Positions 1 to 18,914 of a stretch of 64,000 bases of DNA are shown here, piece after piece; within the stretch, counting starts at the first letter, position 1, and the number at the start of each line of letters is the position of its first letter. Origin of the DNA: Calditrichales bacterium. Its GTDB lineage: Bacteria > Calditrichota > Calditrichia > Calditrichales > J004. The translations under genes were made by a program, and so were the position numbers. The notes under the pieces are model-generated. The model saw only the letters and a list, made by a program, of their open reading frames with translations. It made no database searches and was not told the DNA's origin. The stretch is from contig OZ254086.1 of the NCBI GenBank assembly GCA_965267575.1, forward strand, positions 64,001 to 128,000. The letters run 5' to 3'.

Positions 1-557
1 TTAAGCTCAATTAGACCAATGGGATTATTAACAATGCCTTTAAGTGACTCTATACTTTCGTGAATGGCGTCATGATCGTCAATGGCGTTACGTTCACAAT
101 AGGTGTTAACCATCTTCAGCAGCTTAAAGCCCGGTGTGAAAACGGACGCAATATCCGGTATCCAGGCTTTATCTTTTCGTATGGCCGGGTTAGACACTTC
201 GAAACGTCTTTGTTGTGGGTGAAAGGCGATACGGATATGGACTCTGCGATAGTCTTTATTGATAACCTGCTGTCCCAGAAGGGTTGCCATTAACGCCGTA
301 ACTCGCTGCTGTCCATCAATAAGAATTCTTTTGCCCGACGAAACAGTACCATCCTTGAGCTTAACATTGGGATTGCGCCAGGCGATAAGATAGCCTATAG
401 GGTAGCCCTGGTAGAGTGAATCCATCAGGTCTCTGACTTTGGTGGAGCTCCATACAAAAGGACGCTGTATCTCCGGGATAGCAATCTCATTCGACTGGAC
501 CCAGGTAAGCAATGTTTGAATAGGATGCTGGTTAACGGAGTATTGTTGGATGACCAT
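1..557 (-). CDS. DUF262 (GmrSD-family) domain protein, 5' part; runs off the left edge
   Basis: Not in the ORF track because it is truncated. Manual translation from ATG at 557: [60 protein letters not shown]...[12 protein letters not shown]. This has the DUF262 signatures (P-x-x-QRxFVW, DSLxxGYPIG, DGQQR). Confidence 0.9.
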
Positions 558-560
558 AAA

Positions 561-1364
561 CTAATTCCCTTTATTTATCCGCTTTTCGTTCTTCTCATAA
601 AGCTCTTGTACAAGCTCAAGAGTTTCCTTTAACGTCTTGGCTGCCGTTTTTCTATCAATTGTTTTATAGCCATGGATAAGTGAACTCAGCTCAGAATAAA
701 TATCATGCAACTTAAACCTTAATGCACCATATGATGTCGAATTTATTAGACGTCTGGGAGGATATTCTTTATAGAAATCCCTATCAGAGCCTGTTTGTTT
801 TATTTTTCCAACCCTGGCTCCAATATCCCGCATAGCTGTTTCAAGTATTGTCCGACATAATGCATAGACCGCATTATTACTTTGGAAAGCATAACAGCGC
901 CTAGCTTCAGAAACATAACTTCTCACACTTGAAGGAATATCAATAGGGGAAATAAGAACGCCGATTTCAATCAGGTCTTCAGCGTAACCATATGGACCAA
1001 ACCATGAGTATAAATCTTCAACAATATCTTCTAGCTCAAACAGATCATAATTATTTAGATCATATTTTTCTTCATTCATGGAATATAGACTTTGATAAAT
1101 CTTGTCACCTAGAAAGTCTTCATTATTTACTATCCTTTTAAGAAAAGTTCTTTCACTTTTATCCAGCAATGAAATGGTATCAAAATAAGCGAATTCTTTT
1201 CGAAAATCTCTTTTTGCGATAACAAAATCGCCTGAAATAATAAAAATATGTTTCAGATCCTTAGGGTTATTTTCACCTGAATTTAAAATTCTTTTATAGG
1301 CTTGTTGAATCTTAGAATCACTTTCAATAAGCTCATCTAATTTGTTTTTAAAAGTATTACCCAT
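561..1364 (-). CDS. DUF4145 / HEPN-like domain protein
   Basis: The C-terminal segment SEARRCYAFQSNNAVYALCRTILE...LSSLIHG fits the DUF4145/HEPN pattern (EA..y....RxxLE ... H). The Arg of the Rx4-6H motif appears absent. AT-rich. Confidence 0.6.
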   Translation of the reverse strand: MGNTFKNKLDELIESDSKIQQAYKRILNSGENNPKDLKHIFIISGDFVIAKRDFRKEFAYFDTISLLDKSERTFLKRIVNNEDFLGDKIYQSLYSMNEEKYDLNNYDLFELEDIVEDLYSWFGPYGYAEDLIEIGVLISPIDIPSSVRSYVSEARRCYAFQSNNAVYALCRTILETAMRDIGARVGKIKQTGSDRDFYKEYPPRRLINSTSYGALRFKLHDIYSELSSLIHGYKTIDRKTAAKTLKETLELVQELYEKNEKRINKGN

Positions 1365-1395
1365 AATAGATTTGCTATTTCATTGAAACGGAGGT

Positions 1396-3009
1396 TTACT
1401 TTACTATTTCAGATATTTTTGTGTCTAGCCATCTTACCCCATCTGCATTAAACCGATGCGGGTAAACAATTAAAAAAAGCATATAAAATATTGGAAATTC
1501 TTTTATCATTTCTGGTAAAGAATTTCCCTTGTTCTCGACAGATAATTCAAAAAATTCTTTCCATTCTTGTCGCGGTTTAAAAAATACGCTTTTTAGTTCA
1601 CCTTGTTTATTTCTCCATCTATAAAAATCGTATTTATTCTCATATTCAAAATCTTCCTTAAGTATTTTCGAAATATCAGGCCATATTGATTTTAACCGTT
1701 GTTTCCATAACCTTCGCGTGAAAATATGTACTAACCCTTCTAATGTATATGAAACGCCATCAAAACTATCTTCCAATGGAATAAGTGTAAATTGAAATAA
1801 ATATGGCATATAATCTTCTGCTTGATAATAAGGATTTGGTTTAGCGGTTGGACTTCTCAATTGATTGGATTTACACAATTCGTTTATCAATGAAAACAAA
1901 TAAAAATCAGGTTTGGGAGTGGCATCTGTTTTTCTAAAAAACCAAAATGTAGATAAAAAATTAGGGACTGCTGCCTCGCCCCAAAAAATCATTTTCTTTT
2001 TATATTTATGTATAAAATCAAAAATAAACTTATCTAATTCGTCAGGTTTTATTCCCTCTGCCCTCCGCATAAACCATAGTACGCTCATTAAACTAACGAG
2101 TATGTTTGATCTAAAACCTAATATTGCTAAATCCGTTAATAAGCTACCTTCAATAATATTTTTTCTAATCTGCAGATCTTTTAATAAATCATATAAGGAA
2201 TCCTTGATAAGTACAAACGATATATCAATAGCATTTTTAATTTCATTTAATCGAATTCCATATTTTTCAGAAAAAGACATTGTATAGGAGATATAGATTA
2301 CCCATGCTTCAATTTCAGCATAGTAGTTCTTTTTATTTGAATAGTTTGACAAACACAAAGCACACAATAAAGCAGCACTTGATATGCGTCTTAAACACTC
2401 TGCTGTTGGAATTGCTTTCGCTTTATCTAAATCATATAAACTTTCAAAAAGCATTGATAGGTTTCTTTTATCAATCATTCCCGATCCATCATCGAGAAAG
2501 AATGACAAAAAAATGTTAAACTCGTTTAATTCAGAAGGCCATAAGTTATTTTCAAGGCTTGCTGCCATTTCTAAAAGTTCACCACGAACTATTGTATGTA
2601 GATGATAATTTACTCCTGTTAGTTCAGCCCAGCTACGGTTCAGATTATCAATAGCAATGGCCACTTCTTCTTCTATTTCACCATTTACGACCAAATAACA
2701 TCTTCGCGGTTCGGAACTATCTATTGATGGATGAATTGGAGGTTGAGTAACCAAATCTAAAACTTGAGCATTTAGATCTCTTCGCCACTGTCTAATGCCT
2801 ATTCTTCTGTTTTCTGCATTCTTTAGTTGATAAACACAAATAGTCCCTTCTCGATCTCTCGTAATTACATCCTTTCCAAGTTCCATTGCACTGTGGCGTG
2901 TAGAATGGATAATTGTTTCCCCCCTATTTGATAACATATAGCAAAAGGGTTTTTGGAAAGAGCGCTCGGATGCACTATCCAACCAGTTTTCGATTATTCT
3001 CTCTTTCAT
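1396..3009 (-). CDS. Protein with N-terminal restriction-endonuclease-like (Mrr-like D..QxK) domain and helical C-terminal region
   Basis: N-terminal SERSFQ...ELGKDVITRDREGTICVYQLK matches the E...GxD...(E/Q)xK nuclease pattern. The remaining ~370 aa are not recognised. Confidence 0.6.
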   Translation of the reverse strand: MKERIIENWLDSASERSFQKPFCYMLSNRGETIIHSTRHSAMELGKDVITRDREGTICVYQLKNAENRRIGIRQWRRDLNAQVLDLVTQPPIHPSIDSSEPRRCYLVVNGEIEEEVAIAIDNLNRSWAELTGVNYHLHTIVRGELLEMAASLENNLWPSELNEFNIFLSFFLDDGSGMIDKRNLSMLFESLYDLDKAKAIPTAECLRRISSAALLCALCLSNYSNKKNYYAEIEAWVIYISYTMSFSEKYGIRLNEIKNAIDISFVLIKDSLYDLLKDLQIRKNIIEGSLLTDLAILGFRSNILVSLMSVLWFMRRAEGIKPDELDKFIFDFIHKYKKKMIFWGEAAVPNFLSTFWFFRKTDATPKPDFYLFSLINELCKSNQLRSPTAKPNPYYQAEDYMPYLFQFTLIPLEDSFDGVSYTLEGLVHIFTRRLWKQRLKSIWPDISKILKEDFEYENKYDFYRWRNKQGELKSVFFKPRQEWKEFFELSVENKGNSLPEMIKEFPIFYMLFLIVYPHRFNADGVRWLDTKISEIVK

Positions 3010-3571
3010 GCCATTCTGCTTTTTTCTTAGATATTATTTGTGAGAATCTTTCTCTGACAGAAGGATCTTTTTCTAATTTCTGCAACTCATTATTAATTGA
3101 TTCGGCAATTTCAGGTCCAACAACCATCGTGGGCAGAAAAGGTTTACCATTTTTATCAAACTCAATAAAAATTTTTTTCAGCATTGCAAAAAAATCATCT
3201 ATAGAAAAGTTTCTTCCTTTTAAATCGAATTTATTTCCTGATTTGTCAGTCGTCTTACTTATCTCTTCAAACAAAAAAACACTTTTCTGCTTTGCCATTT
3301 CTTGTGCAATAGATTCAATCTTTTCTATTAAATCCTCAACGGTTAAATCTTCAACTCCTTCCAAAGGCGTTGTAACTTCAGCTTTGAATTCCTTTCTTAC
3401 GTTTTCATCTATTTCTCCATCTTCTCTTTTAATGGAAGATTTATGACCTTCCATTAAGATTTTCTGGGGTGCATCTGCTACAACTCCAGAATATTTTTTT
3501 TCTCGCATCTTAAGCGCTAAAAGTAACTGCTCTTTTAATTTTTCTTTAATTTTGGGGTAATCCGGTAGCAT
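2975..3571 (-). CDS. Hypothetical 198-aa protein, possibly a truncated HK97/encapsulin-like fold
   Basis: Clean ORF with a GAGG RBS; its 3' end overlaps the start of the next gene by 35 bp. The fold assignment is by pattern only (see findings). Confidence 0.55.
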   Translation of the reverse strand: MLPDYPKIKEKLKEQLLLALKMREKKYSGVVADAPQKILMEGHKSSIKREDGEIDENVRKEFKAEVTTPLEGVEDLTVEDLIEKIESIAQEMAKQKSVFLFEEISKTTDKSGNKFDLKGRNFSIDDFFAMLKKIFIEFDKNGKPFLPTMVVGPEIAESINNELQKLEKDPSVRERFSQIISKKKAEWHERENNRKLVG

Positions 3572-3718
3572 TTATTAAACCCTCTCTTCCCTTTGTGCTG
3601 CATCGTTCTTTATAGCCTGTCGACTAAATGATTCTGCCCCCACTCCATACCCTTTCTACACCAGCTTTATAATAAACGTATTTAATCTTGTTGTCACTAA
3701 CTTTTATGTTTAATCACA

Positions 3719-6700
3719 TTACTCCCCTTCTCCCCTATGCGCGGCCCGCGGGTCCCCCGGCGGTGGATCTAAACGGGTTTGATAGGGCTGCCCCGTACGC
3801 ATGGCTTCGGCCATTTCATCATAGATTTCCAAGATGACGCGTTTGGTGCGGTACTCGCCGTGGGCGGCTATGTCTTTGCGTTTGACGATGGGGAAGGTTT
3901 CCATGATGTAGTCGACATCATCCCGTTCGATGCCGTATAGATGAAAATAAGCTGCATCCAATTCGCAGCGTATAAGAAACCGGCGCTCTTCATCCCATAC
4001 AAAGGGGTAGCTACTAAAACCGCATTCTTTCGCCAAAGGCTTTATATCATATGCTGTATAAGACAATTCAATCACTCGGTCACACACCATATTCAGGTGT
4101 TGAACGCTATATGAAGCTGGAGTAATTGCCGGCAACTGTCGTAATAAGTAAAAGTTAATATTTGTACCACCTATTTTTGTCCGCGCCAAATAATCAAAAA
4201 CAAAAGTATTTAGGTTTTGCAATAAACAACACTCCAACTGACTATTCTTATCAGTATTAATTATAAATTCGCTGTCTCCGAGTCCTAATTTTGGGCAGAA
4301 TTTTGCAATAATGCTTCTTTCGTTAGTCGATGGACCAAATCTTCGATAGGATAACAACCAGTCTTTTTCAATTTGTGAGATTTCAGTCTGATTTACCCAG
4401 TAATTGGGTATAGGCAAAAAGCTTTCATCTTGATGCTCTGTTAAAGTAATTAATCTCGTTTCCCCGTTATCAGAATAAGTAGCATACCTATGGTCGAACT
4501 GGTGCATCATCTTCGCTTCATACAGTGGCAGGTATTTCTCATCTCCCTTGCAGAAAACATTGCCGCGCAGCTCCCAGCCATCTTCTTCCAGTTGCTCGCG
4601 GGTGCGGAAAAGGTGCGAATCATTGGACATATCAAACATACGGACAAACTTAATGCCCCATGGATTGCCGTCCGGGTCGTCTTCTTTGATCAGCACGGGG
4701 ACACGGCGGTAGATGCTTTTGGTCAGCTCAGCGTCGCGCTTGCTGCGGAAAATAGGACAGGTTTTGGTGTTGGGGTTGAGCAGTTCGATATCTTCGGCCG
4801 TCAGGGTAAAATGCTTCTCCGAATCACGCAGCTCTTCCGTGCCCTGGGCAAAAAAGACAAAATCGGCACCCTGCCGGGCCGGACGTTTTATGCCGCTCAT
4901 GGTCAGCAGACAAAACTTATAGCTGCGGTGGACCCCCTGAAAAATAGCCCTGCGGTTTTCAAAATCATACAGACTGTGCAGCATCGCCTTTTCCATCAGG
5001 TCCTGGAAGAAAAACTTGGTGGTGTCGTCGGTGGCAATACCGGAAGGCACAATACAGCCCACACGCCCTGTCGGATTGATGATGGTTCGCTTGGCTTCGG
5101 CAAACAGGGCATAGGTATTTACATCGCCCCGGCCCGTTAAAGCATACAGACCGCTGTCACGCACAAAATGGCTTTCTCCTTCAGCCTTACGCCGGTCTTC
5201 CAGGAATGCCCTGTACAGCGTCGGGTCTTCCGTCTGCAGTTCTGCAATCATCTCGCGGCGACGTGCGGCATTAGGCGCATCGGCAATATCCGGGCGGCGC
5301 GTGGCAAACCACTCTTTCTCCTGCAGTTTGATGCGCTCCCATGGCGGGTTGCCCAGCACCACATCAAAACCACCGATCCAGCCGGTCTCCTTATTGTCCG
5401 CCTGCTCGCCCGTGCCCGGCACATGGAACACATCGGGGAATTCGATATGCCAGTGGAAAAAACTGTATTGGTCGGCCAGGCGGTTTATCTCTTCATCCAG
5501 CCAGTCTGGTATAACTGCCGGCCGTTCCTGCACACGACGAAACACTTCATGGGTAATGGGATAGTCAAACTGCTTTGATTTCTTCCACACAAAAGCCGCG
5601 CACCAGGTATCGGCAATCAGCTTATTCAGAATGTAATCATCGGATGAGCGATGTTCGTTAAACAGAAAGCTTTTACGCGACACCGCTTCAAAGGAGTCAT
5701 CAGGCAGTGTATCGATATCCTGCACCGTGTCGGACAGGTTGCCGTACCGGAACCACAGGCCGGGTTCATGAAACAGACTTTTCTGACCCCTTTCGCGTTC
5801 CTGTTTGTTGCGTTTTTTATACTCGCTGCAATAGGCTCTGTTATCGCCTTCAATGGGTTTAAAGGCATCATCGGGAATACCCTTATTGATCAGGGCCGGT
5901 GTTGTGCCCAGCAGGCTGTTACCACACAGAATACGGTGATCCAGAAAGGAGAGCGGTTTGCCCGGTTCCAGCGCTTCCATCCACAGCCCCACCTTGCACA
6001 GCTCCACCGACATTTCATTGATATCTACGCCGTAGATACAGTGGCCGATGATATCACGCAGCGCTTTGCGGTTCTCTTCCGGCGCAGCTTCTTCATCGCC
6101 TGTGCGGGCAAAGGCCAGCTTACGGGCCATGCGGTGTGCCGCAGCAATTAAAAAATGTCCGCTGCCACAGGCGGGATCGCATATTTTTAAATCCAGGATG
6201 GCCTTTTCAGGATCGGCGTTTTTCAGTGCTTCATCCAGCACCGGGTCCAGCGCGGAATTCAGCAATTCACGGATCAGGCTGGTAGGCGTGTAATAGGAGC
6301 CGGTGGTCTTGCGCTCATGCCCGCCGGCCGTCTTAAGCTCAAAGCTGCCGCCTTCCGTGCTCAGTTCCGGGTGCAGCTCCAAAAGCGATTCATAGATGCT
6401 GCCCAATTCTTCCGACCCGGTGTTTTTAAAGTCCACCGGCCGCCGCACCCCACCATCTTGGATAAAGGCCAGCGCTCGGATGGCATCCAGGAAATCATGG
6501 TTGCGGATATCGGATTGCTCCAGGTGGGGAATGGTGGCATCGGAAAACAGGAAACTGCCCAGGGCCGGCAAAGCCAGTTCAGGACATCCGTCCGGATCAC
6601 TGAGCTTTTGCATCACCAGCTTCAGGCCGCGATAGAGATCGCTATTACGGGTGCCGCGCTGCCGTTGCGCCAGCCGCCGGAAACGCATGGTGGAATAGTA

Positions 6701-7663
6701 ACGGGTGTAGATTTCTTTGGCGCCATCGGGTGCTTCCGGGGTGAGCAGCAGGTTACGGTCTTCGGCAGTAAACAGGAAGATCAGCCGGTAGACCAGGCGC
6801 AGCAACTGGCGATAATAATCCTGCTTGTCCAGCGCACCGCTGCGAAGTTTTTCGCGTAAGCCATTGTTACCGGGATAGTTGAGAAAACCGCTGCCCAGCG
6901 CCGTGATCGTCTCTTCCACACCTTTGCGCAACTGGTCCAGCGCTCGCGTTCCCTGCTCCTGCGCCGATTGCGACCATCGTTCCAGCCAGCACTCTTCCGG
7001 CTTGTCCGCTTCCACCCGTGATTGATGACCTAATATCCAGAGCAGCACGAAGTCGGCATAGACTTCGCCTTCCATCATCGCTTCCAGGTCGAACTCCACA
7101 TAGGCCTGGCGCGTCAGGCTGACATTATCACGCAGGATTCGCAGCTTAAGTCCGTTGGATAGAAAACCCCACAAATGGTCATCGGAACGATTAAGGAATT
7201 CCTGCAGCAGGCTGTGCGGGCTTGCACTTGCGGCTCCGGCAACACCTTTTGTACGCCGGTCCAGGTCGATCTTAAAGCCCAGCAGGTGAATCGGCACATG
7301 GCGCCAGGTATGCGAGATGCTGTATTCCTTGTTCTCCAGTACAAAACGTTTGGAAGGCTGCAGTCGGCCATAGCCAAGCTCACTGAAGATCTGCAGCAGC
7401 CAGCGTTCGCGGGTCAGCGTAGTGCCTAAATCTTCATGCGGCAGTTTGTTGCGTTGTGTGCTGAACGATTGCCAGGCGCCCAGCAGGCGGTTCCAGGCGC
7501 GGTTGATCGCTTCGTTAACTTTTTCATTGGGCAGCAGGTGAAAGCTTTGCGGATTCAGACCATCCACATCTTTGGCGCTGACCAGACGCTGCAACAGGTC
7601 CGGCGGCAAGATGGCACCTTCCACCTGTATTGTTGTAAAGAGATCGCGTTTCTTAGTTTGCAT
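3719..7663 (-). CDS. Type IIG/Eco57I-like N6-adenine DNA methyltransferase (DrmMI-like)
   Basis: TGSYYTP, SAM-binding DPACGSGHFL, catalytic GNPPW, C-terminal target-recognition region, and an N-terminal REase-like region (WGFLSNGLKLRILRD). Confidence 0.92.
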   Translation of the reverse strand: MQTKKRDLFTTIQVEGAILPPDLLQRLVSAKDVDGLNPQSFHLLPNEKVNEAINRAWNRLLGAWQSFSTQRNKLPHEDLGTTLTRERWLLQIFSELGYGRLQPSKRFVLENKEYSISHTWRHVPIHLLGFKIDLDRRTKGVAGAASASPHSLLQEFLNRSDDHLWGFLSNGLKLRILRDNVSLTRQAYVEFDLEAMMEGEVYADFVLLWILGHQSRVEADKPEECWLERWSQSAQEQGTRALDQLRKGVEETITALGSGFLNYPGNNGLREKLRSGALDKQDYYRQLLRLVYRLIFLFTAEDRNLLLTPEAPDGAKEIYTRYYSTMRFRRLAQRQRGTRNSDLYRGLKLVMQKLSDPDGCPELALPALGSFLFSDATIPHLEQSDIRNHDFLDAIRALAFIQDGGVRRPVDFKNTGSEELGSIYESLLELHPELSTEGGSFELKTAGGHERKTTGSYYTPTSLIRELLNSALDPVLDEALKNADPEKAILDLKICDPACGSGHFLIAAAHRMARKLAFARTGDEEAAPEENRKALRDIIGHCIYGVDINEMSVELCKVGLWMEALEPGKPLSFLDHRILCGNSLLGTTPALINKGIPDDAFKPIEGDNRAYCSEYKKRNKQERERGQKSLFHEPGLWFRYGNLSDTVQDIDTLPDDSFEAVSRKSFLFNEHRSSDDYILNKLIADTWCAAFVWKKSKQFDYPITHEVFRRVQERPAVIPDWLDEEINRLADQYSFFHWHIEFPDVFHVPGTGEQADNKETGWIGGFDVVLGNPPWERIKLQEKEWFATRRPDIADAPNAARRREMIAELQTEDPTLYRAFLEDRRKAEGESHFVRDSGLYALTGRGDVNTYALFAEAKRTIINPTGRVGCIVPSGIATDDTTKFFFQDLMEKAMLHSLYDFENRRAIFQGVHRSYKFCLLTMSGIKRPARQGADFVFFAQGTEELRDSEKHFTLTAEDIELLNPNTKTCPIFRSKRDAELTKSIYRRVPVLIKEDDPDGNPWGIKFVRMFDMSNDSHLFRTREQLEEDGWELRGNVFCKGDEKYLPLYEAKMMHQFDHRYATYSDNGETRLITLTEHQDESFLPIPNYWVNQTEISQIEKDWLLSYRRFGPSTNERSIIAKFCPKLGLGDSEFIINTDKNSQLECCLLQNLNTFVFDYLARTKIGGTNINFYLLRQLPAITPASYSVQHLNMVCDRVIELSYTAYDIKPLAKECGFSSYPFVWDEERRFLIRCELDAAYFHLYGIERDDVDYIMETFPIVKRKDIAAHGEYRTKRVILEIYDEMAEAMRTGQPYQTRLDPPPGDPRAAHRGEGE

Positions 7664-7675
7664 AATCTGCTTCTT

Positions 7676-10513
7676 CTACTCCGCCAGCGGCAGAAAAACG
7701 TAAATGCCCAGTACATCCACGGGCAGTAATGGCCTGACTTTATAGGTTACACCACGCAGGTTGGACGCGCTGCGCACCCGCTTGTGGGCTTCGGCCAGTT
7801 CTTCGGCCATCTCCTGTGCTGTGTTGTCAATTTTCTTCTGGACGGGTGTAAAATTATCGGTGGTCCTTCTGACCTGGTGCCTGATCATGTCGGGCGTAAT
7901 ATTGGCATCGGGCTGCGCTTCCAGCAACGCGTTGATGCGTTCTTTGCTTAGCCATTGCGGATCATCATGCCCGCCATTGAATCCAAAGACACTTGCTTCT
8001 TCGGAGAGTAATACCTTCTCCTGCCCGCTGCGCACGTTAATGATGTGAAAGCGGAAACGGCATAACACCAGTATCGTCCGCTGCTCCACCTGTCGCGTTC
8101 GTATGGCGCCACAACGTTTGGTGATGCTCTCGTTGCCGGGATCGAGCGTGGTGTCCAGCACATAGTTTGCCAGCCCTTCCACCAGCGGATGGGTGCGGTT
8201 CAGGTAGAGCACATCGTCTTTGACGGGCAAATCAAAATTGGCGTTAAACACATTTTTGTTGATGTTCAGGATATCTTTCAATGCCAGCGGCATCTCCTTG
8301 ATGTCAATACGCAATGCGCCGTTTTCGGAAATGACCGCTTTATGGGCTTTCAGCACCTGTTTAGTAAACCAGGCCACATCCTGTTGCGTCCCGATCGCTT
8401 CACGGGCTTTACGCAGCTCTTCGGCCACTTCATCGACCTTGATGGTCGCCTGGGCAAACATCGCCCGTGAGCGTTTCTCGCGGTCATGAACGGCATCCCA
8501 CTTACGGTGCAGGTCTTCTTTCTGCGGCTGCAGATACTCTTCAAATCCCGGCAGAATCAACTGGTTGACTTTCCGGTCCCGCTGACCGCGCAGCAGCAGC
8601 CCTTCAAAGACCGCTTCAATCACCTGGTCCGTCTTGGCCGGCACCGGCACCGAAACACCAAGCGAGTTGCGGATGGTTTTATGCTTACGCAGAAGTACAT
8701 CCAGTACAATACCGTCGATCTGGTTATCGATGCCGTAATAGGTGATCACCTTTACCTGCGGACTGGGCTGCCCGAAGCGGTCCACACGTCCTTCGCGCTG
8801 TTCATGGCGCGTCGGGTTCCAGGACAGGTCGTAATGCATCACCGCGTTAAAATGGTCCTGCAGGTTAATGCCTTCGCTCAGGCAGTCGGTACAAACCAGC
8901 ACGCGTTTGTCAAACTCCGACATCGCCGCCACCCTGCTTTCGCGCTCCGCAGGGGGCAGATGGCCGGTTACCGGTACCACTTCCACTTTGCCGCTAAGGT
9001 GTTCGCGTAACGCATTTGTCACATATTCAACCGTGGGGATAAAGCGGCAGAATATGATCGGCCGGTAGCCGTCTTTTATCAATCCTTTAATCAGATCAAT
9101 TGCTTTTTTCAGCTTGAGATCGTTTTCGATACCCTGCAGTTTGTCTGCGGACCTGGCAAGGTCCAGCAAGCGCCGGCGGTTGTTTTGTGCGTCTTGCGCC
9201 AGATCACCCAGGTCGCTGCCCGGTGTCACATCAATGCTTTCCGCCGTATCGTCATCCATCAGATCGAGCACGGCATGTTTGCCCACTTCATCGGCCTGCT
9301 GTTCATCTTCCGTATCTGCAGATGCCGCACGGGTACGCAAAGTCGCCGCCGCTGCCGCAGGACTGGATGCCAGTGAACGCAGCAGGGCCAGCGCCGACCA
9401 CCACCTTACGCGCTGTTTAAAAGCGCTGTCGCTATCTTCCTGCACCGATTCACGCACGTAAGCTATAATCTTTTCGGAGAAAGCCTGATAGGCCGCAGAC
9501 AGGTTATAATTTTCTTCCACGTCGGTTCCGCTGCGCTCGGGAAACTTGGTCTCTTCACCCAGGTAGTCTTTGATGTTACCGCGTTTGCGCTGTACAAAGT
9601 AACGGGCCAGATCGCGCCGTCTGTGCTCGTTTTCGGAACCGGTCAGGTCTTCGGGCAGGTCGGCAAAATCGGGCTTCAGAAAGGTTAACAGGGAGCGAAA
9701 GGCTTCTTCCTTGCCGGAATGCGGTGTGGCCGTCACCAGCACCATGTGACGGTTTTCATCTCTGGACAGTCCCGAGACCAGTTCGTAACGCTGATGCCGT
9801 CCGCGGTTGTTTCGATCGCCCCGGGCACATGTATGCGCTTCATCCACGATAACAAACTCCGGGCAGGAACGCAGGAACTCATCACGCCGCTTGTCCGACT
9901 TTATATAGTCCATGGAAACGATGACAAAGGGATAATGCTCGAACAACGACTCACCAAGGCGGCATTTCTTTTCCAGCTTACGCGCCGTGCTTGGCAGAAC
10001 CAGCTCGGCGTCGATATGGAATTTATCGCTTAGTTCTTTTTGCCACTGCTCAGCCAGCTGTGGCGGGCACAACACGGCGATATTTTCAATTTCTCCGCGG
10101 TCCAGTAACTCGCGCGCAATCAGTGCTGCTTCAATGGTCTTGCCGATACCCACGTCATCGGCAATCAGGATACGCACCGGCTCCAGCTTCAGAGCCATCA
10201 GTAGCGGCACAAGCTGATAAGGTCGCGGCTCCACGGCGATTTTGCCAAAACAGCGGAACGGACCGGCGCTGGAACGAAAACCGATACGCAACGCATCCCG
10301 CAACAGCTTGCAGGATATAAAGTCACCCACGTCTTCGGGATCGGGCAGATCAAAATGGGCCGGTTCTATCTCTTCCAAAGTTGGTAAAATCCCGGTCATT
10401 TCCGCATCGGTGCCACCCAGTGGCCGCACCATCACCAGTTCATCCGATGTACCGGGCAGCACAACCCAGTCGCGTTCCCGCACCCTTACAAGGCTTCCTA
10501 CACTATAATTCAT
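7676..10513 (-). CDS. SNF2/RapA-like helicase (DrmD-like)
   Basis: PRPYQ, LIADDVGIGKT, DEAH, TATPH, EGINLQ, WNPTRHEQREGRVDRFGQ. Confidence 0.92.
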   Translation of the reverse strand: MNYSVGSLVRVRERDWVVLPGTSDELVMVRPLGGTDAEMTGILPTLEEIEPAHFDLPDPEDVGDFISCKLLRDALRIGFRSSAGPFRCFGKIAVEPRPYQLVPLLMALKLEPVRILIADDVGIGKTIEAALIARELLDRGEIENIAVLCPPQLAEQWQKELSDKFHIDAELVLPSTARKLEKKCRLGESLFEHYPFVIVSMDYIKSDKRRDEFLRSCPEFVIVDEAHTCARGDRNNRGRHQRYELVSGLSRDENRHMVLVTATPHSGKEEAFRSLLTFLKPDFADLPEDLTGSENEHRRRDLARYFVQRKRGNIKDYLGEETKFPERSGTDVEENYNLSAAYQAFSEKIIAYVRESVQEDSDSAFKQRVRWWSALALLRSLASSPAAAAATLRTRAASADTEDEQQADEVGKHAVLDLMDDDTAESIDVTPGSDLGDLAQDAQNNRRRLLDLARSADKLQGIENDLKLKKAIDLIKGLIKDGYRPIIFCRFIPTVEYVTNALREHLSGKVEVVPVTGHLPPAERESRVAAMSEFDKRVLVCTDCLSEGINLQDHFNAVMHYDLSWNPTRHEQREGRVDRFGQPSPQVKVITYYGIDNQIDGIVLDVLLRKHKTIRNSLGVSVPVPAKTDQVIEAVFEGLLLRGQRDRKVNQLILPGFEEYLQPQKEDLHRKWDAVHDREKRSRAMFAQATIKVDEVAEELRKAREAIGTQQDVAWFTKQVLKAHKAVISENGALRIDIKEMPLALKDILNINKNVFNANFDLPVKDDVLYLNRTHPLVEGLANYVLDTTLDPGNESITKRCGAIRTRQVEQRTILVLCRFRFHIINVRSGQEKVLLSEEASVFGFNGGHDDPQWLSKERINALLEAQPDANITPDMIRHQVRRTTDNFTPVQKKIDNTAQEMAEELAEAHKRVRSASNLRGVTYKVRPLLPVDVLGIYVFLPLAE

Positions 10514-13500
10514 TTAATGTCCCGAATATACCCGGATATTGTTTTATTAAGCTTAGCCAGTCGTCTGTGTGCCCAAAGCGCAGAACCATATAGCCGCGGT
10601 CTTCCAGCTCATCGGTTTTCGCCGCGTCACGTTCCTTGCGCTCGGGATAATCATGATGGGGCCCGTCCACATAAACGGCAACCGCCTGCCCCTTGTAGAA
10701 GAAGTCCGGACGGGTCTGCATTTTTTCAATAAAATACTGCGCCTGGTCGGGCAATTTGAGTCCATGCTTTTCCAGAACGTACAGCCACTCACGCTCCAGT
10801 TGCGATTCACAGGCCGCTACCAATGCGCTGAGATGTTCTTCCCGGCTTTGCTGCCCCGGTGAATGACTTACGTTGCTTTGCGCCATTTCCATTAAAATAG
10901 CGGCAATGGCTTTGCGGTCCAGCAGTTCATGATCGCGTTGATTACCATAGTTCATCAGGCAGTCATAGCAGGCTGCTTCGCAGTCTTCACGGGCACCCGG
11001 CGCCCTGCCCTGATCATCGCCCGTTTCAGGCTCGTAATGGCATATTTCAAGCGCTTTCTTTGCCACCAGGGAAAATGCTTCCGGATCGGAAACAAGCCGC
11101 CTAAGCACACCTGCGCCCCCTTCAGCGGACTCGTAAAACAATATCTGCTGACGGTCTTGTGCCGTTGGTAACGGATCAACAGCCAGCTCATTGTCTTCCA
11201 GTTGATAGAGCACCTGGATGGCATTTTTTAATGCCGATTGCAGGGATGCCATCTCGGCTTCTGTCAAAGGTTTCAGCGGTTTGAAAATCAGGCTGTTGCG
11301 GCGGTCTTCCACATAAGGAATAACCCGTTCCACACGATCGGACATCTGTTCGTCGGTCCCGTTTTCACCATCCTGGACAAGCTGCTCATTGCGTTCCCAG
11401 AAACCGCGCTCTTTATCAATAAGGAAACCGACCTGGTTTGGATTTGCCCGGCGCCGCCAACCCAGGTTAACACGCCAGATGGTTGCCGTATGACCATAAA
11501 AAAGCTCAGCATAATCGCTGCCCTTTACCTGCAGTACACCTTTCTGGTATGCAGGACCATGGCCATGCTCGCCAAAACGCACGCCCGTCAGAATCTCATA
11601 TCCCAACCGCAAACGTTCTTCTTCATCCGAGCTGATACGGTCACGTCTCTTGGTAGATACATTCTGTAGTCTGAACAGAGAACGTAGTGGCTGCTCCAGG
11701 CGTGTACCGCAAAGCTCGCACATATCCTGATTGATTTCTTCATTGACCGGATGCAGGTAACCGCACTCCTGGCACACCTTGGCCTGGCTGGTATTCAGTT
11801 CATCGGAATCACGGACCGGCATGATCACTTTATTGATGATGTAACGTGAACCTTCATGGTAGATAATGGAACGCGGCCCGAACTCGGAAATCGCCAGGAA
11901 GCGCGGACGCGAAAGAAACTCATCCTTATCCTTTTGTTTTATACGTCGCGCAGCAATGTAGGCCGAAATGGGCAGTCTGGGGAAATTATAGCCGGGCAGG
12001 AAACCTTCACTGGCAAAATAACGGTAGCTGTAGAAATCCGATTGAACAATATTTTCAACTTCAGTCAACAGCTTTAGCTGTGCTTCCGCTTCCTTACGGA
12101 GTTGCTCTGCTTTGCGTCTGTCTTCTGCGCTGCGTGACGCATCATGGATAATTGCCGTCTGATTCTTCGCCTGATTCAATGCCGACCAATACAGCTCGCG
12201 CCAGCGGTTGCAGGCAATTTCGAAAGCCTGGTAAACCTGGTTCAATACATTATTGAGCCAATTATCTTTGTACCAATCACTCTTTTCCAATTCGCTCTTA
12301 ACAGAATTCAAGACCTGCTCTGCCAGGTTATGGGCCTGTAAGCGTTTCATTTTATCTTTCAATGCATCTTTGACTTCCTGAATCAAGTCCAGGGAAGGTT
12401 CGTCTCCGGCAAGGTCAAGAATATCCCTTAAGGATTTATGTAGATTCAAATTGGCTTCGCCCAGCCAAACGGCCTGGATATGCGCTTTGACCAGATCTTC
12501 ATTTGCCAGATCAATCCGCGGCGGTGATACTTTCCCGGATACCATCAGTTGTGGGCGTTTAAAGAAATATTGGTCATGAGAGCTGCCTGTAGAACAATAA
12601 CTAAAAACCAAAGCCGGCTGACCGCTACGACCCGCCCGACCACTTCTTTGCGCATAGTTGGCTGGTGTTGGCGGGATGTTGCGCATATTGACCACGTTGA
12701 GCTCGGCAATGTCCACACCCAACTCCATTGTAGGAGAGCAGAACAGAATGGGTAACTCGGCTTCTTTAAAGCGATTTTCCCGCTCTTCACGTTTCTCGTA
12801 GGGTACTTGAGCCGTATGTTCCCGGCCTTCAAAGGTAAGTGTCTTGAGTGCCGTTTCCTTGTAAAAATCGATAAAGAAAGGGTTCGTACGCATGCCTTCA
12901 TCCGGCCTGTTTGGAACGCGTATGGGGTCATAAAAGGCCTTCGTGCCATCACCAGCAATCCAGCGTAGACACGATGCTTTTAATTGATAGCCATGCAGGT
13001 TGTCCGGTTGCTGGTCTATAGCTTCAACAATGCCGGCAATTTCCAGGTTATGTAATATTTGGACAATAATCTCTTCCGTTTCCACAACCGACAACTTCTC
13101 ACCATATTCAGGCAGTGTCGGCCCCCTTCTAAGGTACATTCCGTAACCGCCGCGCCCGGACATGTAGACATTCCATTGCGAGTCTCCCGGACGGTTTCTG
13201 GATCTTGGATATAAGGTAGCTGAACTGGTCATGCGTTCGTCTTCATCAATGGCCCAGGGGGCAACAAGGTACTGGTTGCTTTGCTGCTTGATACGGTCCT
13301 GGAAGTAGGTATCCAGGTAATCCACTTTAATAGCCAGCTCACGACGCATAAAATCCAACAGCACTTTACAAATAGTGGCCCGAGTTTCGTGCGATGCTGA
13401 AATTAATGCCGGATGGCCACCGCTCCAGTCATCGTCGTTAGCGCAAAGCTCTTCCAATGACTCATATTGGATTTCCAGCATCCCACACTGCTCCAGGTTA

Positions 13501-15698
13501 GGCGAAGTAATGCGCCAACCTTTTTTGAGATCACGATAGATACGATAGCCCAGTACATTGCGCAACGCCTTTTTCGTCTCCGTCTCCGCCCTGTAACGCA
13601 CGGCAGGGTTAACAGCATATTCTTTCAACGGCAAATTCAAAGCATCAAATACCTTGTCTGCAATTTCATCATGTCCCAAGCCACCTGATCCGTAATCACT
13701 GACAGCTTTAAAAAGAGCCGCCCTAAGCCAGCCTATTTCAACAAAATCGTTGAAGTGTCCCGCCTGCAGCGACGCATCCTGGCGGTTGTCGGTAAAACTA
13801 AGCAGCTTTTTTGCCTGATTCCTGATTTCGGTATCATTTTTTAAATAGCGTATCGTGGAAAGCCCCAGAATGGTAGTAGCCGTGCTGCGGCCTTCCGATG
13901 AAAGGGTGGAAAGTTTGGGAAAATCAGAATATTGACGGATGCCGTAGGAAACACCACAATTAAGACAAAAGCGGAATGGTGACGCGAAGAATTGAAAAGA
14001 TAAGCCTGAATCATCGGTTCGTCCATTGGGCAATACGCCAACCGTAGACGGAAGATATTCCTGGCGATTGTTGCGCACAACAAGCCGGCCGTTTTGTTCA
14101 ATAATCCAGTCTTGTGGAAGCCGATCAATTATTTCTTCATCATTGTCCGGCCAGGGATTTGATTCACTTCTGAACAAAAATCCGGGAATGTCATTGTCTG
14201 CCTTCACCTGGTCGGAGAGCTCTCTGGCGCAAAACACTCTGTCACCGCCTTCATCATCGGCGCAATAACGCACCAGATAGTATTCCTGACCGCATTCTCT
14301 ACAGAACGCCATGGGCAGCAGTATCTTTTGACGATTGGCATTCGGCACATACTGCTGACCGGATACCGTCACATGGCGATCGTTCTCATCTTCAATGGAA
14401 CAGTAAACTGTATCGCCCTTGCTAATAAACTGATGTATCCTAAAGGCAAAGGGACGGAAGCCGGTTTGTGGATGCGGAGCACAAAAATGTCCTGCAAGCA
14501 ACGCTCTCTTTATTATGGAAGCACATTTATCAAAGGGTTCACCTGTAATCTGAGCAAGCTCTTTCGCAGCCCCATTGTTACCACCAATGGGTCTGGGAAT
14601 GGATCGAACCAGACGTCGCGTATCTGGCTCCTTGCTTAGCCCAAAAGTGCTCTCAATCCAGGATGCCAAGGGATCTTCAATAAACGTGTTGTATTCTGTA
14701 GGAAACGAATTATCCTGAGCAACGCGTTGCTTTAACCTGTTTACGTAGTCCGGGTTTTTAACGCTCTGTTCTTCAGTTACTCGCTTTAAAGTTTCGCCTA
14801 TCACATGTTCCGGCATCACCGGAGAGCCAAATAATTGCGTAGCGACTTCAGCGATCTTCTTTTGCTGATCGATAAAAGTGCCTTCTGTAGAAAGTGTGGC
14901 CGAAGTCCCAACATATTGAAGGTCACGCGCTTCGAGTTTTTGCTTTACCCTGCGTGCCAGATAAGCCACGTCTGCCCCTTGCCGGCCGCGATAGGTGTGT
15001 AACTCATCAAAAACCAGAAACTTCAAATCCATAGCTGCAGATATCAATTGCTTTTCGTCAGTTCGAGTTAGAATGAGCTCCAGCATTACATAATTGGTTA
15101 ATAAAATATCAGGCGGATTATTAAGAATTTCATTCTTCTGTTCCTGGCTCTCCTGTCCCGTATATCTGGCAAACTTTACAGGCGCCGCACCCTTGGGATA
15201 GCCGTACTCAATAAACTTCTCCAGTTCACCAAGCTGACTATTCGCCAGTGCGTTCATTGGGTATACAACAATGGCCTTAATTCCCTTTCCTGAGCCATTA
15301 CGCAAAACATAGTCCACAATCGGGATGATGTATGCCAGGCTCTTTCCCGAACCGGTTCCGGTGGTTAGCACATAGTTTTGATTTGTCTTTGCAGCACGGA
15401 CAGCATCCGATTGATGCTTATGCAGACGCAACGGCTTCCCTGGATCATCCGGCTTTTCTTTTATCTTGAAGATCCGGTTACACTCCGAATGTAAAACGTT
15501 TTCATTCACCAGATCTGTAATGCGACTGCCTTGTTCGAAAGATGGGTTTAATTGAATGAGCGCTTCCGGCCAAAGGTCACCACGCTCAAACATATCATCC
15601 ACATATTCACGAATCTTTCGGTCTTTTATGTGAAGGAAACTTTGAATATAGGAATTGTAGTCTCGAATTAAGGACTCGCGCAGATCAAAAACATCCAT
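10503..15698 (-). CDS. YprA-family DEAD/DEAH helicase with DUF1998 and C-terminal DUF559/Vsr-like endonuclease
   Basis: TGTGSGKS, YPMNALANSQ, DELHTYRG, TSAT, ELGVDI, QRSGRAGR and several CxxC pairs. DUF1998 segment ESAEGGAG...CEAACYDCL. C-terminus ESQLE...PDFFY...VYVDGPHHD...RGYMVLRF. Confidence 0.92.
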   Translation of the reverse strand: MDVFDLRESLIRDYNSYIQSFLHIKDRKIREYVDDMFERGDLWPEALIQLNPSFEQGSRITDLVNENVLHSECNRIFKIKEKPDDPGKPLRLHKHQSDAVRAAKTNQNYVLTTGTGSGKSLAYIIPIVDYVLRNGSGKGIKAIVVYPMNALANSQLGELEKFIEYGYPKGAAPVKFARYTGQESQEQKNEILNNPPDILLTNYVMLELILTRTDEKQLISAAMDLKFLVFDELHTYRGRQGADVAYLARRVKQKLEARDLQYVGTSATLSTEGTFIDQQKKIAEVATQLFGSPVMPEHVIGETLKRVTEEQSVKNPDYVNRLKQRVAQDNSFPTEYNTFIEDPLASWIESTFGLSKEPDTRRLVRSIPRPIGGNNGAAKELAQITGEPFDKCASIIKRALLAGHFCAPHPQTGFRPFAFRIHQFISKGDTVYCSIEDENDRHVTVSGQQYVPNANRQKILLPMAFCRECGQEYYLVRYCADDEGGDRVFCARELSDQVKADNDIPGFLFRSESNPWPDNDEEIIDRLPQDWIIEQNGRLVVRNNRQEYLPSTVGVLPNGRTDDSGLSFQFFASPFRFCLNCGVSYGIRQYSDFPKLSTLSSEGRSTATTILGLSTIRYLKNDTEIRNQAKKLLSFTDNRQDASLQAGHFNDFVEIGWLRAALFKAVSDYGSGGLGHDEIADKVFDALNLPLKEYAVNPAVRYRAETETKKALRNVLGYRIYRDLKKGWRITSPNLEQCGMLEIQYESLEELCANDDDWSGGHPALISASHETRATICKVLLDFMRRELAIKVDYLDTYFQDRIKQQSNQYLVAPWAIDEDERMTSSATLYPRSRNRPGDSQWNVYMSGRGGYGMYLRRGPTLPEYGEKLSVVETEEIIVQILHNLEIAGIVEAIDQQPDNLHGYQLKASCLRWIAGDGTKAFYDPIRVPNRPDEGMRTNPFFIDFYKETALKTLTFEGREHTAQVPYEKREERENRFKEAELPILFCSPTMELGVDIAELNVVNMRNIPPTPANYAQRSGRAGRSGQPALVFSYCSTGSSHDQYFFKRPQLMVSGKVSPPRIDLANEDLVKAHIQAVWLGEANLNLHKSLRDILDLAGDEPSLDLIQEVKDALKDKMKRLQAHNLAEQVLNSVKSELEKSDWYKDNWLNNVLNQVYQAFEIACNRWRELYWSALNQAKNQTAIIHDASRSAEDRRKAEQLRKEAEAQLKLLTEVENIVQSDFYSYRYFASEGFLPGYNFPRLPISAYIAARRIKQKDKDEFLSRPRFLAISEFGPRSIIYHEGSRYIINKVIMPVRDSDELNTSQAKVCQECGYLHPVNEEINQDMCELCGTRLEQPLRSLFRLQNVSTKRRDRISSDEEERLRLGYEILTGVRFGEHGHGPAYQKGVLQVKGSDYAELFYGHTATIWRVNLGWRRRANPNQVGFLIDKERGFWERNEQLVQDGENGTDEQMSDRVERVIPYVEDRRNSLIFKPLKPLTEAEMASLQSALKNAIQVLYQLEDNELAVDPLPTAQDRQQILFYESAEGGAGVLRRLVSDPEAFSLVAKKALEICHYEPETGDDQGRAPGAREDCEAACYDCLMNYGNQRDHELLDRKAIAAILMEMAQSNVSHSPGQQSREEHLSALVAACESQLEREWLYVLEKHGLKLPDQAQYFIEKMQTRPDFFYKGQAVAVYVDGPHHDYPERKERDAAKTDELEDRGYMVLRFGHTDDWLSLIKQYPGIFGTLNEL

Positions 15699-15822
15699 GG
15701 TTTTTTACCCATTTATGGAAATTGGATTGTTGAAAAGTATATAGATCAGTGGTTATATACAATAGTGATCGAGCTTACGATGTAGAAATATTTTTATACA
15801 CAACAAAAGTAGGGACAAAATT

Positions 15823-16248
15823 ATGGGCCAGCACGATAAATATGGAAAAGAGGTTTTAAAATCAGCATTTGGAGAAAGAGTTGAAATAACAGGACAGAAA
15901 ACAGAAGTTCAATTAGGTAATAAGGGCAGACCAGCAAGAATAGATGCGGTCATAGATGGTGAGATTGCAGTAGAAATTGAATCTCGAACCGGCAAACAGG
16001 TACGAGGAGCAATTATTGATTTGCTGATATCAAAACACAAAAAAATGCTGCTAATATTGTTGCCTGTTCATATGTCCAACGCGGAAATAACAAAAGCTCA
16101 ATGTAAGCACATTTTTAAAGAGCTTAATCCAGATAAGAAATATGAAGTTATTGTTTTTGAAGAATATCGTGGTAAAATTATTCCAGAGGTAAAATCGATT
16201 CACAAAAGGGCAGTAAGCCAGGCAGTGGATCGGCTTAAAGGTCTTTAG
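15823..16248 (+). CDS. Small PD-(D/E)xK-like nuclease-fold protein
   Basis: H-D...RIDAVIDGEIAVEIESR pattern; divergent from the helicase operon. Confidence 0.5.
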   Translation: MGQHDKYGKEVLKSAFGERVEITGQKTEVQLGNKGRPARIDAVIDGEIAVEIESRTGKQVRGAIIDLLISKHKKMLLILLPVHMSNAEITKAQCKHIFKELNPDKKYEVIVFEEYRGKIIPEVKSIHKRAVSQAVDRLKGL

Positions 16249-16383
16249 GCAATTTTCGCGTATACTTTTACGCTGTTTTCCAAGGAGATTTATTTAGCTT
16301 TTGAATGTCATCAAATTTTACAAAGCATCCTTATCTTATATCTTTGAATTAGCAATTTTATTTCAGGCTTTTTACATTAGATT

Positions 16384-17838
16384 ATGCATTATACACTTAC
16401 GAAATCCAAGTATCTCAATGCATTACAGTGTGCAGGATGGCTATGGCTGGAAAAAAACCAACCTAAGCTTGCTGCGCCTTTATCTGCGGCAGATAAGTAC
16501 GCAATAAAAAAGGGAAATGACGTCCATAAATTTGCACAATTAGCATTTGACAATGGAGTAAATGCCTATCGCCAGGACTTAGATGAAGCGATTGAAGCCA
16601 CAAAAAGCGCAATCAATAAGAGTGAAGTAATTTTTGAACCATCCTTTGTCTTTGATGAAGTTTTAGTAAGAAGTGATATACTTAAGAAAAATTCAAACGG
16701 ATGGGACTTAATTGAGGTGAAATCTTCAACTAGGGTAAAAGAAGAATTTATACCAGACCTGGCCATTCAAAAGTATGTATTAGAACAAAACGGTTTAGAG
16801 ATAAACAAATGTGATCTGATGTTTATTAACAAGGAGTGTGAATATCCTAATCTTGATAACCTATTTGAATATCAGAACTTGGACGATGAGATAAATGCTC
16901 ATATAGAAATAGTTCCAAAAAAGATATCATTCTTTAAAGAAGTTCTAAATAGTCCACATAAATATGACAAGGGAATAGGTGATCATTGTAAAAAACCACT
17001 ATCCTGTCCTTTTCAAGACCATTGTTGGCAAAGCATACCAAAACATTCAATCTATTCTGTTCCACGGCTACGTTGGGAGAAAAAACAACAACTCATCGAT
17101 GATGGTATTATAAAAATCGTTGATATACCTGATACTTTCCCATTAACAGATTTACAAAAAAGCTATGTTAATGCTGTTAAACAGGAATCTATATATATAA
17201 ATAAAAACGGTATTAGAGATGATTTAAATAGTTTTAATTTCCCTATCTACTTTTTAGATTTTGAAACAGATACATTTCCAATACCAAGATATGAAAAACA
17301 ATGTCCGTATGACTTAGTGCCATTCCAATACTCCTGCCACATATTACATGAAGACGGCAGCCTCGAACATAAAGAATTTTTGCACTCTGATTTAGAAGAC
17401 CCAAGACCTCCCTTTATTGAATCACTAATAACATGCGTTTCAAATGCTTCTGGATCAATTGTCGCATACAATGCTTCTTTCGAAAAAAGGGTGTTAAATA
17501 TTCTTGCTGAAAGCTTTCCTAATTACGCTACTCTGCTAGTGGATTTTGCTAATCGATTATTTGACCTATTATTGACTGTTAGAAATAATTATAACCATCC
17601 TGACTTCGAAGGTTCTTTTTCATTAAAGAAAGTCTTGCCGGTGTTGGCGCCTGATTTGACTTATACTAATCTGGCTGTACAAAAAGGAGATGATGCTTCC
17701 GCTTTCTGGAATGACATGATTCATGAGAAGGATGCAGGAAAAAAGAATAGGTCTATTAAATCATTAAAAGAATATTGTAAATTAGATACATTAGCGATGG
17801 TCAGAATATACGAATATTTGAAAACTGTTTCTCAATAA
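16384..17838 (+). CDS. DUF2779-family protein: Cas4/RecB-like Fe-S nuclease plus DEDD/RNase H-like exonuclease
   Basis: LTKSKY...QC, RSDIL...LIEVKSST and CxxPxxCPFxxxC in the N-terminal half. FLDFET...YNASFEK...DL...YCKLDT in the C-terminal half. Confidence 0.8.
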   Translation: MHYTLTKSKYLNALQCAGWLWLEKNQPKLAAPLSAADKYAIKKGNDVHKFAQLAFDNGVNAYRQDLDEAIEATKSAINKSEVIFEPSFVFDEVLVRSDILKKNSNGWDLIEVKSSTRVKEEFIPDLAIQKYVLEQNGLEINKCDLMFINKECEYPNLDNLFEYQNLDDEINAHIEIVPKKISFFKEVLNSPHKYDKGIGDHCKKPLSCPFQDHCWQSIPKHSIYSVPRLRWEKKQQLIDDGIIKIVDIPDTFPLTDLQKSYVNAVKQESIYINKNGIRDDLNSFNFPIYFLDFETDTFPIPRYEKQCPYDLVPFQYSCHILHEDGSLEHKEFLHSDLEDPRPPFIESLITCVSNASGSIVAYNASFEKRVLNILAESFPNYATLLVDFANRLFDLLLTVRNNYNHPDFEGSFSLKKVLPVLAPDLTYTNLAVQKGDDASAFWNDMIHEKDAGKKNRSIKSLKEYCKLDTLAMVRIYEYLKTVSQ

Positions 17839-18914
17839 TCTCATGTTTGCGTGAGTCCATTTCCCTCGGCTGTAAGATAGGCCTATTCCGTAGCAGACAC
17901 ACAAAAAAAGGTTATGCTAAATAAAGCTACTTTGATGTATATTGCACAATATAAGACGTTTTTACCTTAAGTATTTATTTTTAAATGACTTATAACCCCA
18001 CCCTAGTTTATTAGTATGTGGGATAGAGCAGAATTGGGGTTTGCATACCACTACCCCACTAAAAAACTGGGGCCTATTTGAACATGCCCCCATCTGATTT
18101 ATCAGTTCTAAGAATCAGTGTTTATCTTGATTAAAATACAGCCCAGCTCAACTATTAAAGCTATTCCGCATAATATAATAGCTAAAGTTACCTGTTGCAT
18201 CCACGTTTACTCAACGTGGCCACCATTAATCCAATGGTCATTTACTCCGGCATAAATTGTCGCTGATATCTCATCCCAAAGTCTAGATGAGCAAATTTAA
18301 AATAGAACTCGTCTCTATTTATGCTAATTTAATATAGGTAGATAATAATCACTTTACAAACTTGAGAAAAAAAATCATAACTGGGTTCTTTTCGATTAAT
18401 CTTCGTTAGTTCAATTGTCTTTAAAACCGATTAGTTACAAATTTTGTAACTGATCATCTCCCAATTAAGCCATTTCTATACCGTGATTTTGCTATCGGTT
18501 ATCTAATAATCAAATTAAAAAAATAATCAAATGGACGTAGTGATTGGATTCTGTTCCAATAAATGGAACAGAGTATTTAGGCTGTCGTTTTGGCGCACTT
18601 GACTGTCATTTTTGCATTTTTAGTAATTATTTCGTATATTTATTTATAGTTAGTTAAACACTTAAAAGGAGATAAAACAATGACTTAGAGTACGCAATAT
18701 ATAAATGGGTAATCGGTCTTACCCGTGTCCAATAAACAGCTTTATAGCACGTATTGGCATTCTTTCAAAGACATTATTAGTGCGTTTTACACACCGAAAA
18801 ACGCCCGTTCCTTATAACAATAAAGGATTAGTCTCCATTAATTAGTTATAAAATCCTAATCAAAACGTGCGTTTAATTTTCAAAACTAACCTAAATAGAG
18901 AGGAGAAGTACGTC

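Follow-up and report, generated by a model that had tools for sequence, protein, structure and literature searches.

A widespread two-gene nuclease module with a predicted capsid-like partner beside an ARMADA type I-like system

What do two overlapping, AT-rich genes in a defence island of a Calditrichales bacterium encode, and is the smaller product related to the shell proteins of phages? The genes, named S and L here, lie in a window of 64,000 nucleotides (contig OZ254086.1 of assembly GCA_965267575.1, positions 64,001 to 128,000 of the forward strand; coordinates below count from the first letter of this stretch). An earlier note made from the letters of the window had proposed them as an undescribed defence system of a capsid-like protein and a nuclease. 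Computation established how the genes are paired, the fold and motif of the nuclease, the predicted resemblance of S to the capsid fold and the genomic contexts. We regard S-L as a nuclease system of two genes whose predicted capsid-like partner is without precedent, and most likely as an undescribed anti-virus system.

Layout, pairing and spread of S and L

The pair and its parts, with both genes taken from the list of open reading frames (ORFs), are as follows:

2975..3571, minus strand: S, 198 aa, predicted partial HK97/encapsulin-like fold
1396..3009, minus strand: L, putative effector of 537 aa, stop codon 1396-1398 included
2545..3009, minus strand: predicted nuclease domain of L, residues 1-155, PD-(D/E)xK, Mrr/MspJI/FokI-like, with E43, D47, Q61 and K63
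1399..2544, minus strand: C-terminal domain of L, residues 156-537, all-helical, fold unassigned
2975..3009, minus strand: dual-coding overlap of S stop and L start, 35 nt, translational coupling
3669..3697, minus strand: promoter-like site upstream of S, GTGACA-17-TATTAT, 10/12 in a consensus scan

The two AT-rich genes with a 35-bp overlap described in the earlier note were recovered: positions 2975-3009 are common to both ORFs, and the content of guanine and cytosine (GC) is 0.28-0.38. The C-terminus of S (AEWHERENNRKLVG, followed by its stop codon) and the N-terminus of L (MKERIIENWLDS) are encoded by the same bases in two frames. We fetched 25 related loci, of which 15 hold the 5' end of L with upstream DNA and 7 start inside L; the remaining three are L020 and L021, with broken copies of both genes, and L003, which is the window's own DNA. 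L014 and L016 are apparently one sequence. The neighbourhoods of the homologues bore out the pairing, as S stands immediately upstream of L with the identical 35-nt overlap in 15 of the 15 scorable intact loci. In these 15 loci the start codon of L is mostly GTG and is preceded, inside S, by an AGGAGG-like motif. S and L are thus real genes, and both are under selection.

The L family comprised 483 proteins at E<=0.001 among 8000 candidates scored. The best 120 of these 483 are 533-549 aa long with 44-61% identity, and they carry no precomputed Pfam domain and, by a cluster look-up, no name beyond 'hypothetical protein'. For S, a profile search of 1.84 billion cluster representatives returned 2222 relatives at E<=0.001 (610 at <=1e-30), and nearly all of the best 150 of the 2222 are 192-203 aa long; weaker matches (E 1e-10 to 1e-3) numbered 618 proteins. 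The S family consists of these 2222 50%-identity clusters and extends across several phyla. The profile search reached far more relatives than a word-based search, which found only 5 proteins, and a contig scan with a single-protein query gave 1 locus only. In the phylum of the window S and L were found in the same 2 of 86 genomes, and in IMG/VR the searches with S and with L matched one and the same contig; the phylum around genome G086 had a match in 1 of 25 genomes and added nothing. By tblastn S had no match better than E 9 in 50,697 phage records, and L had no match in 72,556 plasmids. When 154 neighbouring ORFs were compared with one another by all-against-all BLAST, no third gene proved to be conserved. 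Three further runs under the same species label as the source, two of them DNA, placed no contig on positions 1-20000 of the window, which does not prove absence.

The earlier note did not recognise the pair as a named system, and this still holds. Neither protein was assigned to a family of Pfam, PADLOC, NCBIfam or PHROGs, PADLOC-DB v2 gave 0 families for either of them at E<=0.1, and comparison with PDB sequences by phmmer and hmmsearch gave chance-level matches or none. S-L belongs to no PADLOC, Pfam, NCBIfam or PHROGs family, nor to the ARMADA systems discussed below. No paper describing S-L was found in the literature, where the supplements of large discovery screens are not comparable by sequence. 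Two-gene systems of a nuclease and a partner are a known kind of bacterial immunity; S-L is unnamed in the libraries searched and very widespread.

In windows of 500 nt, GC was 0.28-0.38 across 1001-3500 as compared to 0.51-0.58 across 4501-11500. The spacer of 147 nt upstream of S carries the promoter-like site, a pattern match only, and the region has 5 such sites compared to 13.0 expected from shuffles. The spacer with this site, together with the drop in GC, suggests that S-L is a separately acquired module and not part of the upstream operon. The placement inside a defence operon made in the earlier note was right as to the defence island, where the pair lies downstream of a three-gene system, but probably not as to membership in the operon.

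At least one defence gene recognised by PADLOC was found at 8 of the 21 loci with any flank. In the window these are the ARMADA type I-like genes upstream. On the IMG/VR contig (L025) S-L follows PD-Lambda-1, an MkoC-like gene and QatABCD and precedes DzbAB; L021 has Thoeris and L007 a type I restriction-modification (RM) system. L012 encodes a DrmD-like helicase and a type IIG enzyme, with PIN and Schlafen domains as well. L001, L006 and L022 have at least one PADLOC-recognised defence gene each. One integrase family adjoins S at three loci (L007, L008 and L009). Housekeeping surroundings occur as well, with the pair between dnaK and dnaJ at L011 and after methylmalonyl-CoA mutase at L019. 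Such a mixture of contexts, together with low GC and a patchy distribution, is in keeping with a module that is small, autonomous and mobile and of defence or toxin-antitoxin (TA) type.

Some of the loci have features of their own. The IMG/VR contig is a dense defence island over its positions 1-14088, with PD-Lambda-1, the MkoC-like gene, QatABCD, S-L and DzbA/DzbB on one strand. At L011 (5134-11613) S-L and a zinc-ribbon gene are inserted in the dnaK-dnaJ chaperone operon, an unusual site. Directly upstream of S at L001 (4266-5918) lies a 550-aa ORF with a weak GHKL ATPase match (HATPase_c E 6.5e-4, below the cut-off), which was not conserved at the other fetched loci. At L007 (5220-8035) an element of the IS21 family, with a fused istA/istB-like ORF at 5488-7497, splits S after about residue 26; L downstream is intact, and the type I RM system and an integrase lie upstream.

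Predicted folds of L and S

The AlphaFold2 (AF2) model of L (predicted local distance difference test (pLDDT) score 86.5) has an alpha-beta-beta-beta-alpha-beta core at residues 1-155, as found in PD-(D/E)xK nucleases. The GKD...YQLK nuclease motif noted earlier at the N terminus is present in the translation and agrees with this fold: E43, G45, D47, Q61 and K63 are invariant in 43 of 43 aligned L sequences, and the motif residues lie at the ends of strands 48-51 and 57-63 of the model. As these residues are invariant, the nuclease domain is probably active. Pfam Mrr_cat did not match L of the window; 3 of the 43 members match it, with a best E of 0.038 that is below the gathering score, and among the Atlas clusters it is found on 12-13% of members. 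The long unassigned helical region reported earlier was found again, as residues 156-537 are all-helical in the model; they gave sub-threshold structural matches only, to helical rods and toroids, and their fold was therefore left unassigned. An affinity to ABC-3C CTD3 (Atlas, score 0.75) was dropped, as there was no CTD3 match among the 43 members at E<=1.

S was modelled by AF2 from a 150-sequence alignment (pLDDT 93.2, predicted template modelling score (pTM) 0.77). The model consists of a helix at 6-33, a hairpin of strands 44-48 and 54-58, and helices at 78-111, 124-133, 153-168 and 170-196, and all motifs that had been quoted for S (KEFKAEVTTPL, LIEKIESIAQEMAKQKSVFLFEEI, IDDFFAMLKKI, PTMVVGPEIAESI) occur in its translation. 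In this predicted structure helix 6-33 and the hairpin correspond to the N-terminal helix and two-stranded E-loop hairpin of the HK97 fold, and both are included in the structural alignments to encapsulins, which cover S residues 9-167 and 10-168. Helix 78-111, followed in the model by the nearly invariant G112 (and N113), corresponds to the spine helix with its glycine-rich turn; hhalign and Pfam put the same stretch on the spine-helix region of capsid profiles, without significance. The A-domain region of S has only helix 124-133, two 2-residue bridges (137-138 and 144-145) and helix 153-168; the part from helix 124-133 to helix 153-168 was aligned to encapsulin A-domain residues, and most of the A-domain sheet is absent.

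Searches with S also returned capsid proteins. Foldseek against BFVD gave phage T7 gp10B as top match (E 0.026, prob 0.99). The L model had no capsid among its best 50 structural matches, so capsids do not fill such lists by default. With language-model features, 26 of 30 matches of S were unnamed clusters, apparently its own family, and the only named sets shown were phage capsid families (0.81), which is a lead only. One of 149 S members matched Pfam Phage_capsid_4 (E 2.9e-4, residues 63-163 on profile 77-167) and also SU10_MCP (E 2.1e-3), in both cases below the curated cut-off; SU10_MCP was matched by 3 of 150 members. Among the 86 genomes of the phylum, encapsulin was present in only 1 and Phage_capsid_4 in only 2. 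Judging from the model, there is a good chance that the first two thirds of an HK97-like fold are present in S, with a new C-terminal helix as a cap, and common descent from a capsid gene is plausible.

A number of results weigh against this reading of S. DSSP found no strand after residue 145 in the S model, which means that the P-domain sheet of the HK97 fold is missing, as is most of the A-domain sheet. Residues 153-196 form two helices, and the structural alignments stop at about residue 170. Foldseek against the PDB gave no match (best E 2.2). When S was compared by hhalign with a 53-sequence Phage_capsid_4-type alignment, built from one of the two genomes with that family, E was 0.17 and the probability 0.35%, in the expected register. 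The interpretation given in the earlier note was partly supported. The likeness may be a coincidence of a long helix and a hairpin in a mostly helical protein. S would in that case be no more than an ordinary subunit, regulatory or for specificity, of a restriction-like enzyme such as a modification-dependent one, and head assembly would play no part. We consider this a minority possibility. Even without the capsid link, S-L is a compact, tightly conserved two-gene candidate defence system, and its predicted catalytic residues are clear targets for mutation.

Proposed mechanism and competing explanations

That S and L form a complex is suggested by their close translational coupling and strict pairing, and also by a weak signal in co-folding. 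The C-terminus of S and the N-terminus of L are dual-coded, so their invariance is not clean evidence of an interface. In co-folding, the check suggested for the pair by the earlier note, the median ipSAE was 0.42 as compared to 0.00 for the best of 3 controls; this was graded 'weak support', since a pass at <=0.60 is wrong in more cases than it is right, except where the guess had been likely from the start. That L is a nuclease effector controlled by S, in defence against phages or other mobile DNA, we put at roughly even chances.

In the mechanism that we propose, S-L would be a self-contained, horizontally mobile module that entered a defence island behind the last gene of an ARMADA type I system and probably brought its own promoter. 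By means of the 35-nt overlap and the putative internal ribosome-binding site, S would be made just before L from the same message. L would be the effector, with an N-terminal Mrr/MspJI/FokI-type PD-(D/E)xK DNase followed by a helical domain of about 380 residues, the probable site of partner binding or of signal reading. The most likely role of S is to bind L and either keep the nuclease silent or direct it until infection. Once activated, L would cut phage or cell DNA.

What activates L is the least certain step, more so than DNA cleavage, binding and control by S or the defence role. Phage head assembly is the favoured trigger because S is predicted to be a cut-down HK97-fold protein, with the N-terminal helix, an E-loop-like hairpin, the spine helix, part of the A domain and a new C-terminal helix. 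Speculatively, a step in head assembly would engage S and free or activate L, with the capsid protein, the scaffold, the prohead protease and the portal as candidate triggers; we regard this as doubtful. It is likewise rather unlikely that S is a trimmed capsid protein co-opted by bacteria, a stand-in for a phage head subunit that holds a restriction-type nuclease in check. S would then be pulled away, co-assembled or cleaved once a phage begins to build HK97-fold heads, and the onset of head assembly would itself switch on DNA destruction.

If S is indeed a trimmed HK97-fold protein, the capsid fold would be used outside shells, a use that we have not seen described, and there would be a testable route for cells to read phage head assembly, a step common to nearly all tailed phages. 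If S is a stand-in, the pair would sense phages by mimicking the structure of their most conserved protein.

The layout of the pair also suits a different role, that of an addiction module of TA type, with L as a DNase toxin and S as the upstream, coupled protein antitoxin. The pair would then persist because its loss kills the cell, it would stabilise islands and mobile elements, and any effect on phages would be secondary. The small gene comes first and overlaps the larger one, as is classic for such modules; the module is autonomous and patchy, beside integrases and also within housekeeping operons; TA genes are neighbours at L001 and L013; S and L decay together in L020 and L021; and the co-folding result (0.42 vs 0.00) lends the same weak support here. 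However, the library scan and the AF2 model gave no recognisable DNA-binding domain in S for autoregulation, L with its 537 aa, which include a large and conserved helical domain, far exceeds the usual size of type II toxins, and no match was found in the 72,556 plasmids, where addiction modules are common. The intact L at L007 argues weakly against S as an essential antitoxin, although the IS21 insertion that splits S may also silence L. On balance an addiction module appears unlikely.

It is far less probable that S-L belongs to a mobile element, as a leftover or as a part still at work, with a degenerate capsid gene and a nuclease that would serve transfer, packaging or homing of the element itself and not the defence of the host. 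The capsid-like fold of S, the integrase that adjoins it at three loci, the match on an IMG/VR contig and the low GC of the pair speak for such a part. No portal, terminase or other head gene lies beside the pair at any fetched locus, however, and the surroundings on the IMG/VR contig are a string of defence systems. There were no relatives in 50,697 phage genomes, and the length and sequence of the proteins are tightly conserved across phyla, unlike those of a decaying remnant. An anti-virus system of nuclease and partner remains the reading that we prefer.

Known systems and neighbouring genes

As HK97-fold shell proteins we compared family 1 encapsulins (Pyrococcus furiosus and Thermotoga maritima), phage T7 gp10 and HK97 gp5 with S. 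These have about 260-400 aa, whereas S has 198, and in S two helices (153-196) replace the P-domain sheet and most of the A-domain sheet. There was no significant sequence or profile similarity, and in the fetched loci S is not encoded beside head, cargo or packaging genes. L shares with nucleases of the Mrr/MspJI/FokI type the alpha-beta-beta-beta-alpha-beta core and D...QxK in residues 1-155, and MspJI uses the D...QxK variant. Unlike these enzymes, L has no recognisable domain for DNA recognition or for reading modifications, and the rest of it is helical. The capsid-sensing immune proteins CapRel and the Avs families link immunity to phage head proteins, as is proposed for S-L; in those systems unrelated sensor domains sense the capsid, whereas in S-L the capsid fold would belong to the protein of the host. 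The gene layout of S-L also matches that of type II TA systems, with a small upstream antitoxin gene that overlaps the toxin gene.

PADLOC-DB v2, which we take to include models of Olokun (OloA/OloB), had no match to S-L at E<=0.1, and S-L was rejected as Olokun also because domain order and partner fold differ. Olokun is reported to be likewise a two-gene operon of a PD-(D/E)xK nuclease joined to a helical domain and a non-enzymatic partner, which complexes with the nuclease protein (bioRxiv 10.1101/2025.07.10.664194). The Olokun partner resembles adaptin and OloB carries its helical domain at the N-terminus, whereas here the nuclease is N-terminal and the partner capsid-like.

The minus-strand genes upstream of S are, in the order of transcription:

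10503-15698, minus strand: helicase of 1731 aa with DEAD, MZB and DUF559/Vsr-like domains
7676-10513, minus strand: SNF2 helicase of 945 aa
3719-7663, minus strand: N6-adenine methyltransferase of 1314 aa, PglX/DrmMI type

As described, ARMADA type I opens with a YprA-like helicase that has a Vsr-type nuclease at its C-terminus, followed by a BrxHII-like helicase and then by a PglX-like methylase (PMC12458937). The genes at 3719-15698 (minus strand), immediately upstream of S, fit both order and domains; PADLOC labelled the trio DruE-, DpdE/DrmD- and DrmMI-like. S-L lies outside the definition of that system and has a far lower GC. The trio was absent from the flanks of the other fetched S-L loci, of which only L012 has a DrmD-like helicase nearby. 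Within the methyltransferase gene, the 3' part (4001-4500) has a GC of 0.362 as compared to 0.51-0.58 for the rest of the gene, and may be a swapped C-terminal (target-recognition) segment.

After the methyltransferase gene the minus strand continues with S, L, a 267-aa gene (561-1364) and the start of a GmrSD-like gene (3-557). The 267-aa ORF is AT-rich, starts 31 nt after L and had weak matches only (DUF4145 E 0.0072, below the cut-off, and phrog_1305 E 0.0024); it is without a counterpart beside S-L at other loci and may be another small defence or regulatory gene. The piece at 3-557 (minus strand) encodes the N-terminal part of a type IV restriction enzyme of GmrSD type (DUF262), whose gene leaves the window at its start. 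Divergent from the ARMADA operon, 16384-17838 (plus strand) encodes a protein of 484 aa that has DUF2779 and a weak match to a Cas4-like nuclease. Further along, at 20358-29798 (minus strand), an ORF of 3146 aa has TcA_TcB_BD, ABC_toxin_N, Neuraminidase-like and VRP1 domains, which indicate a TcA-like component of a Tc toxin complex.
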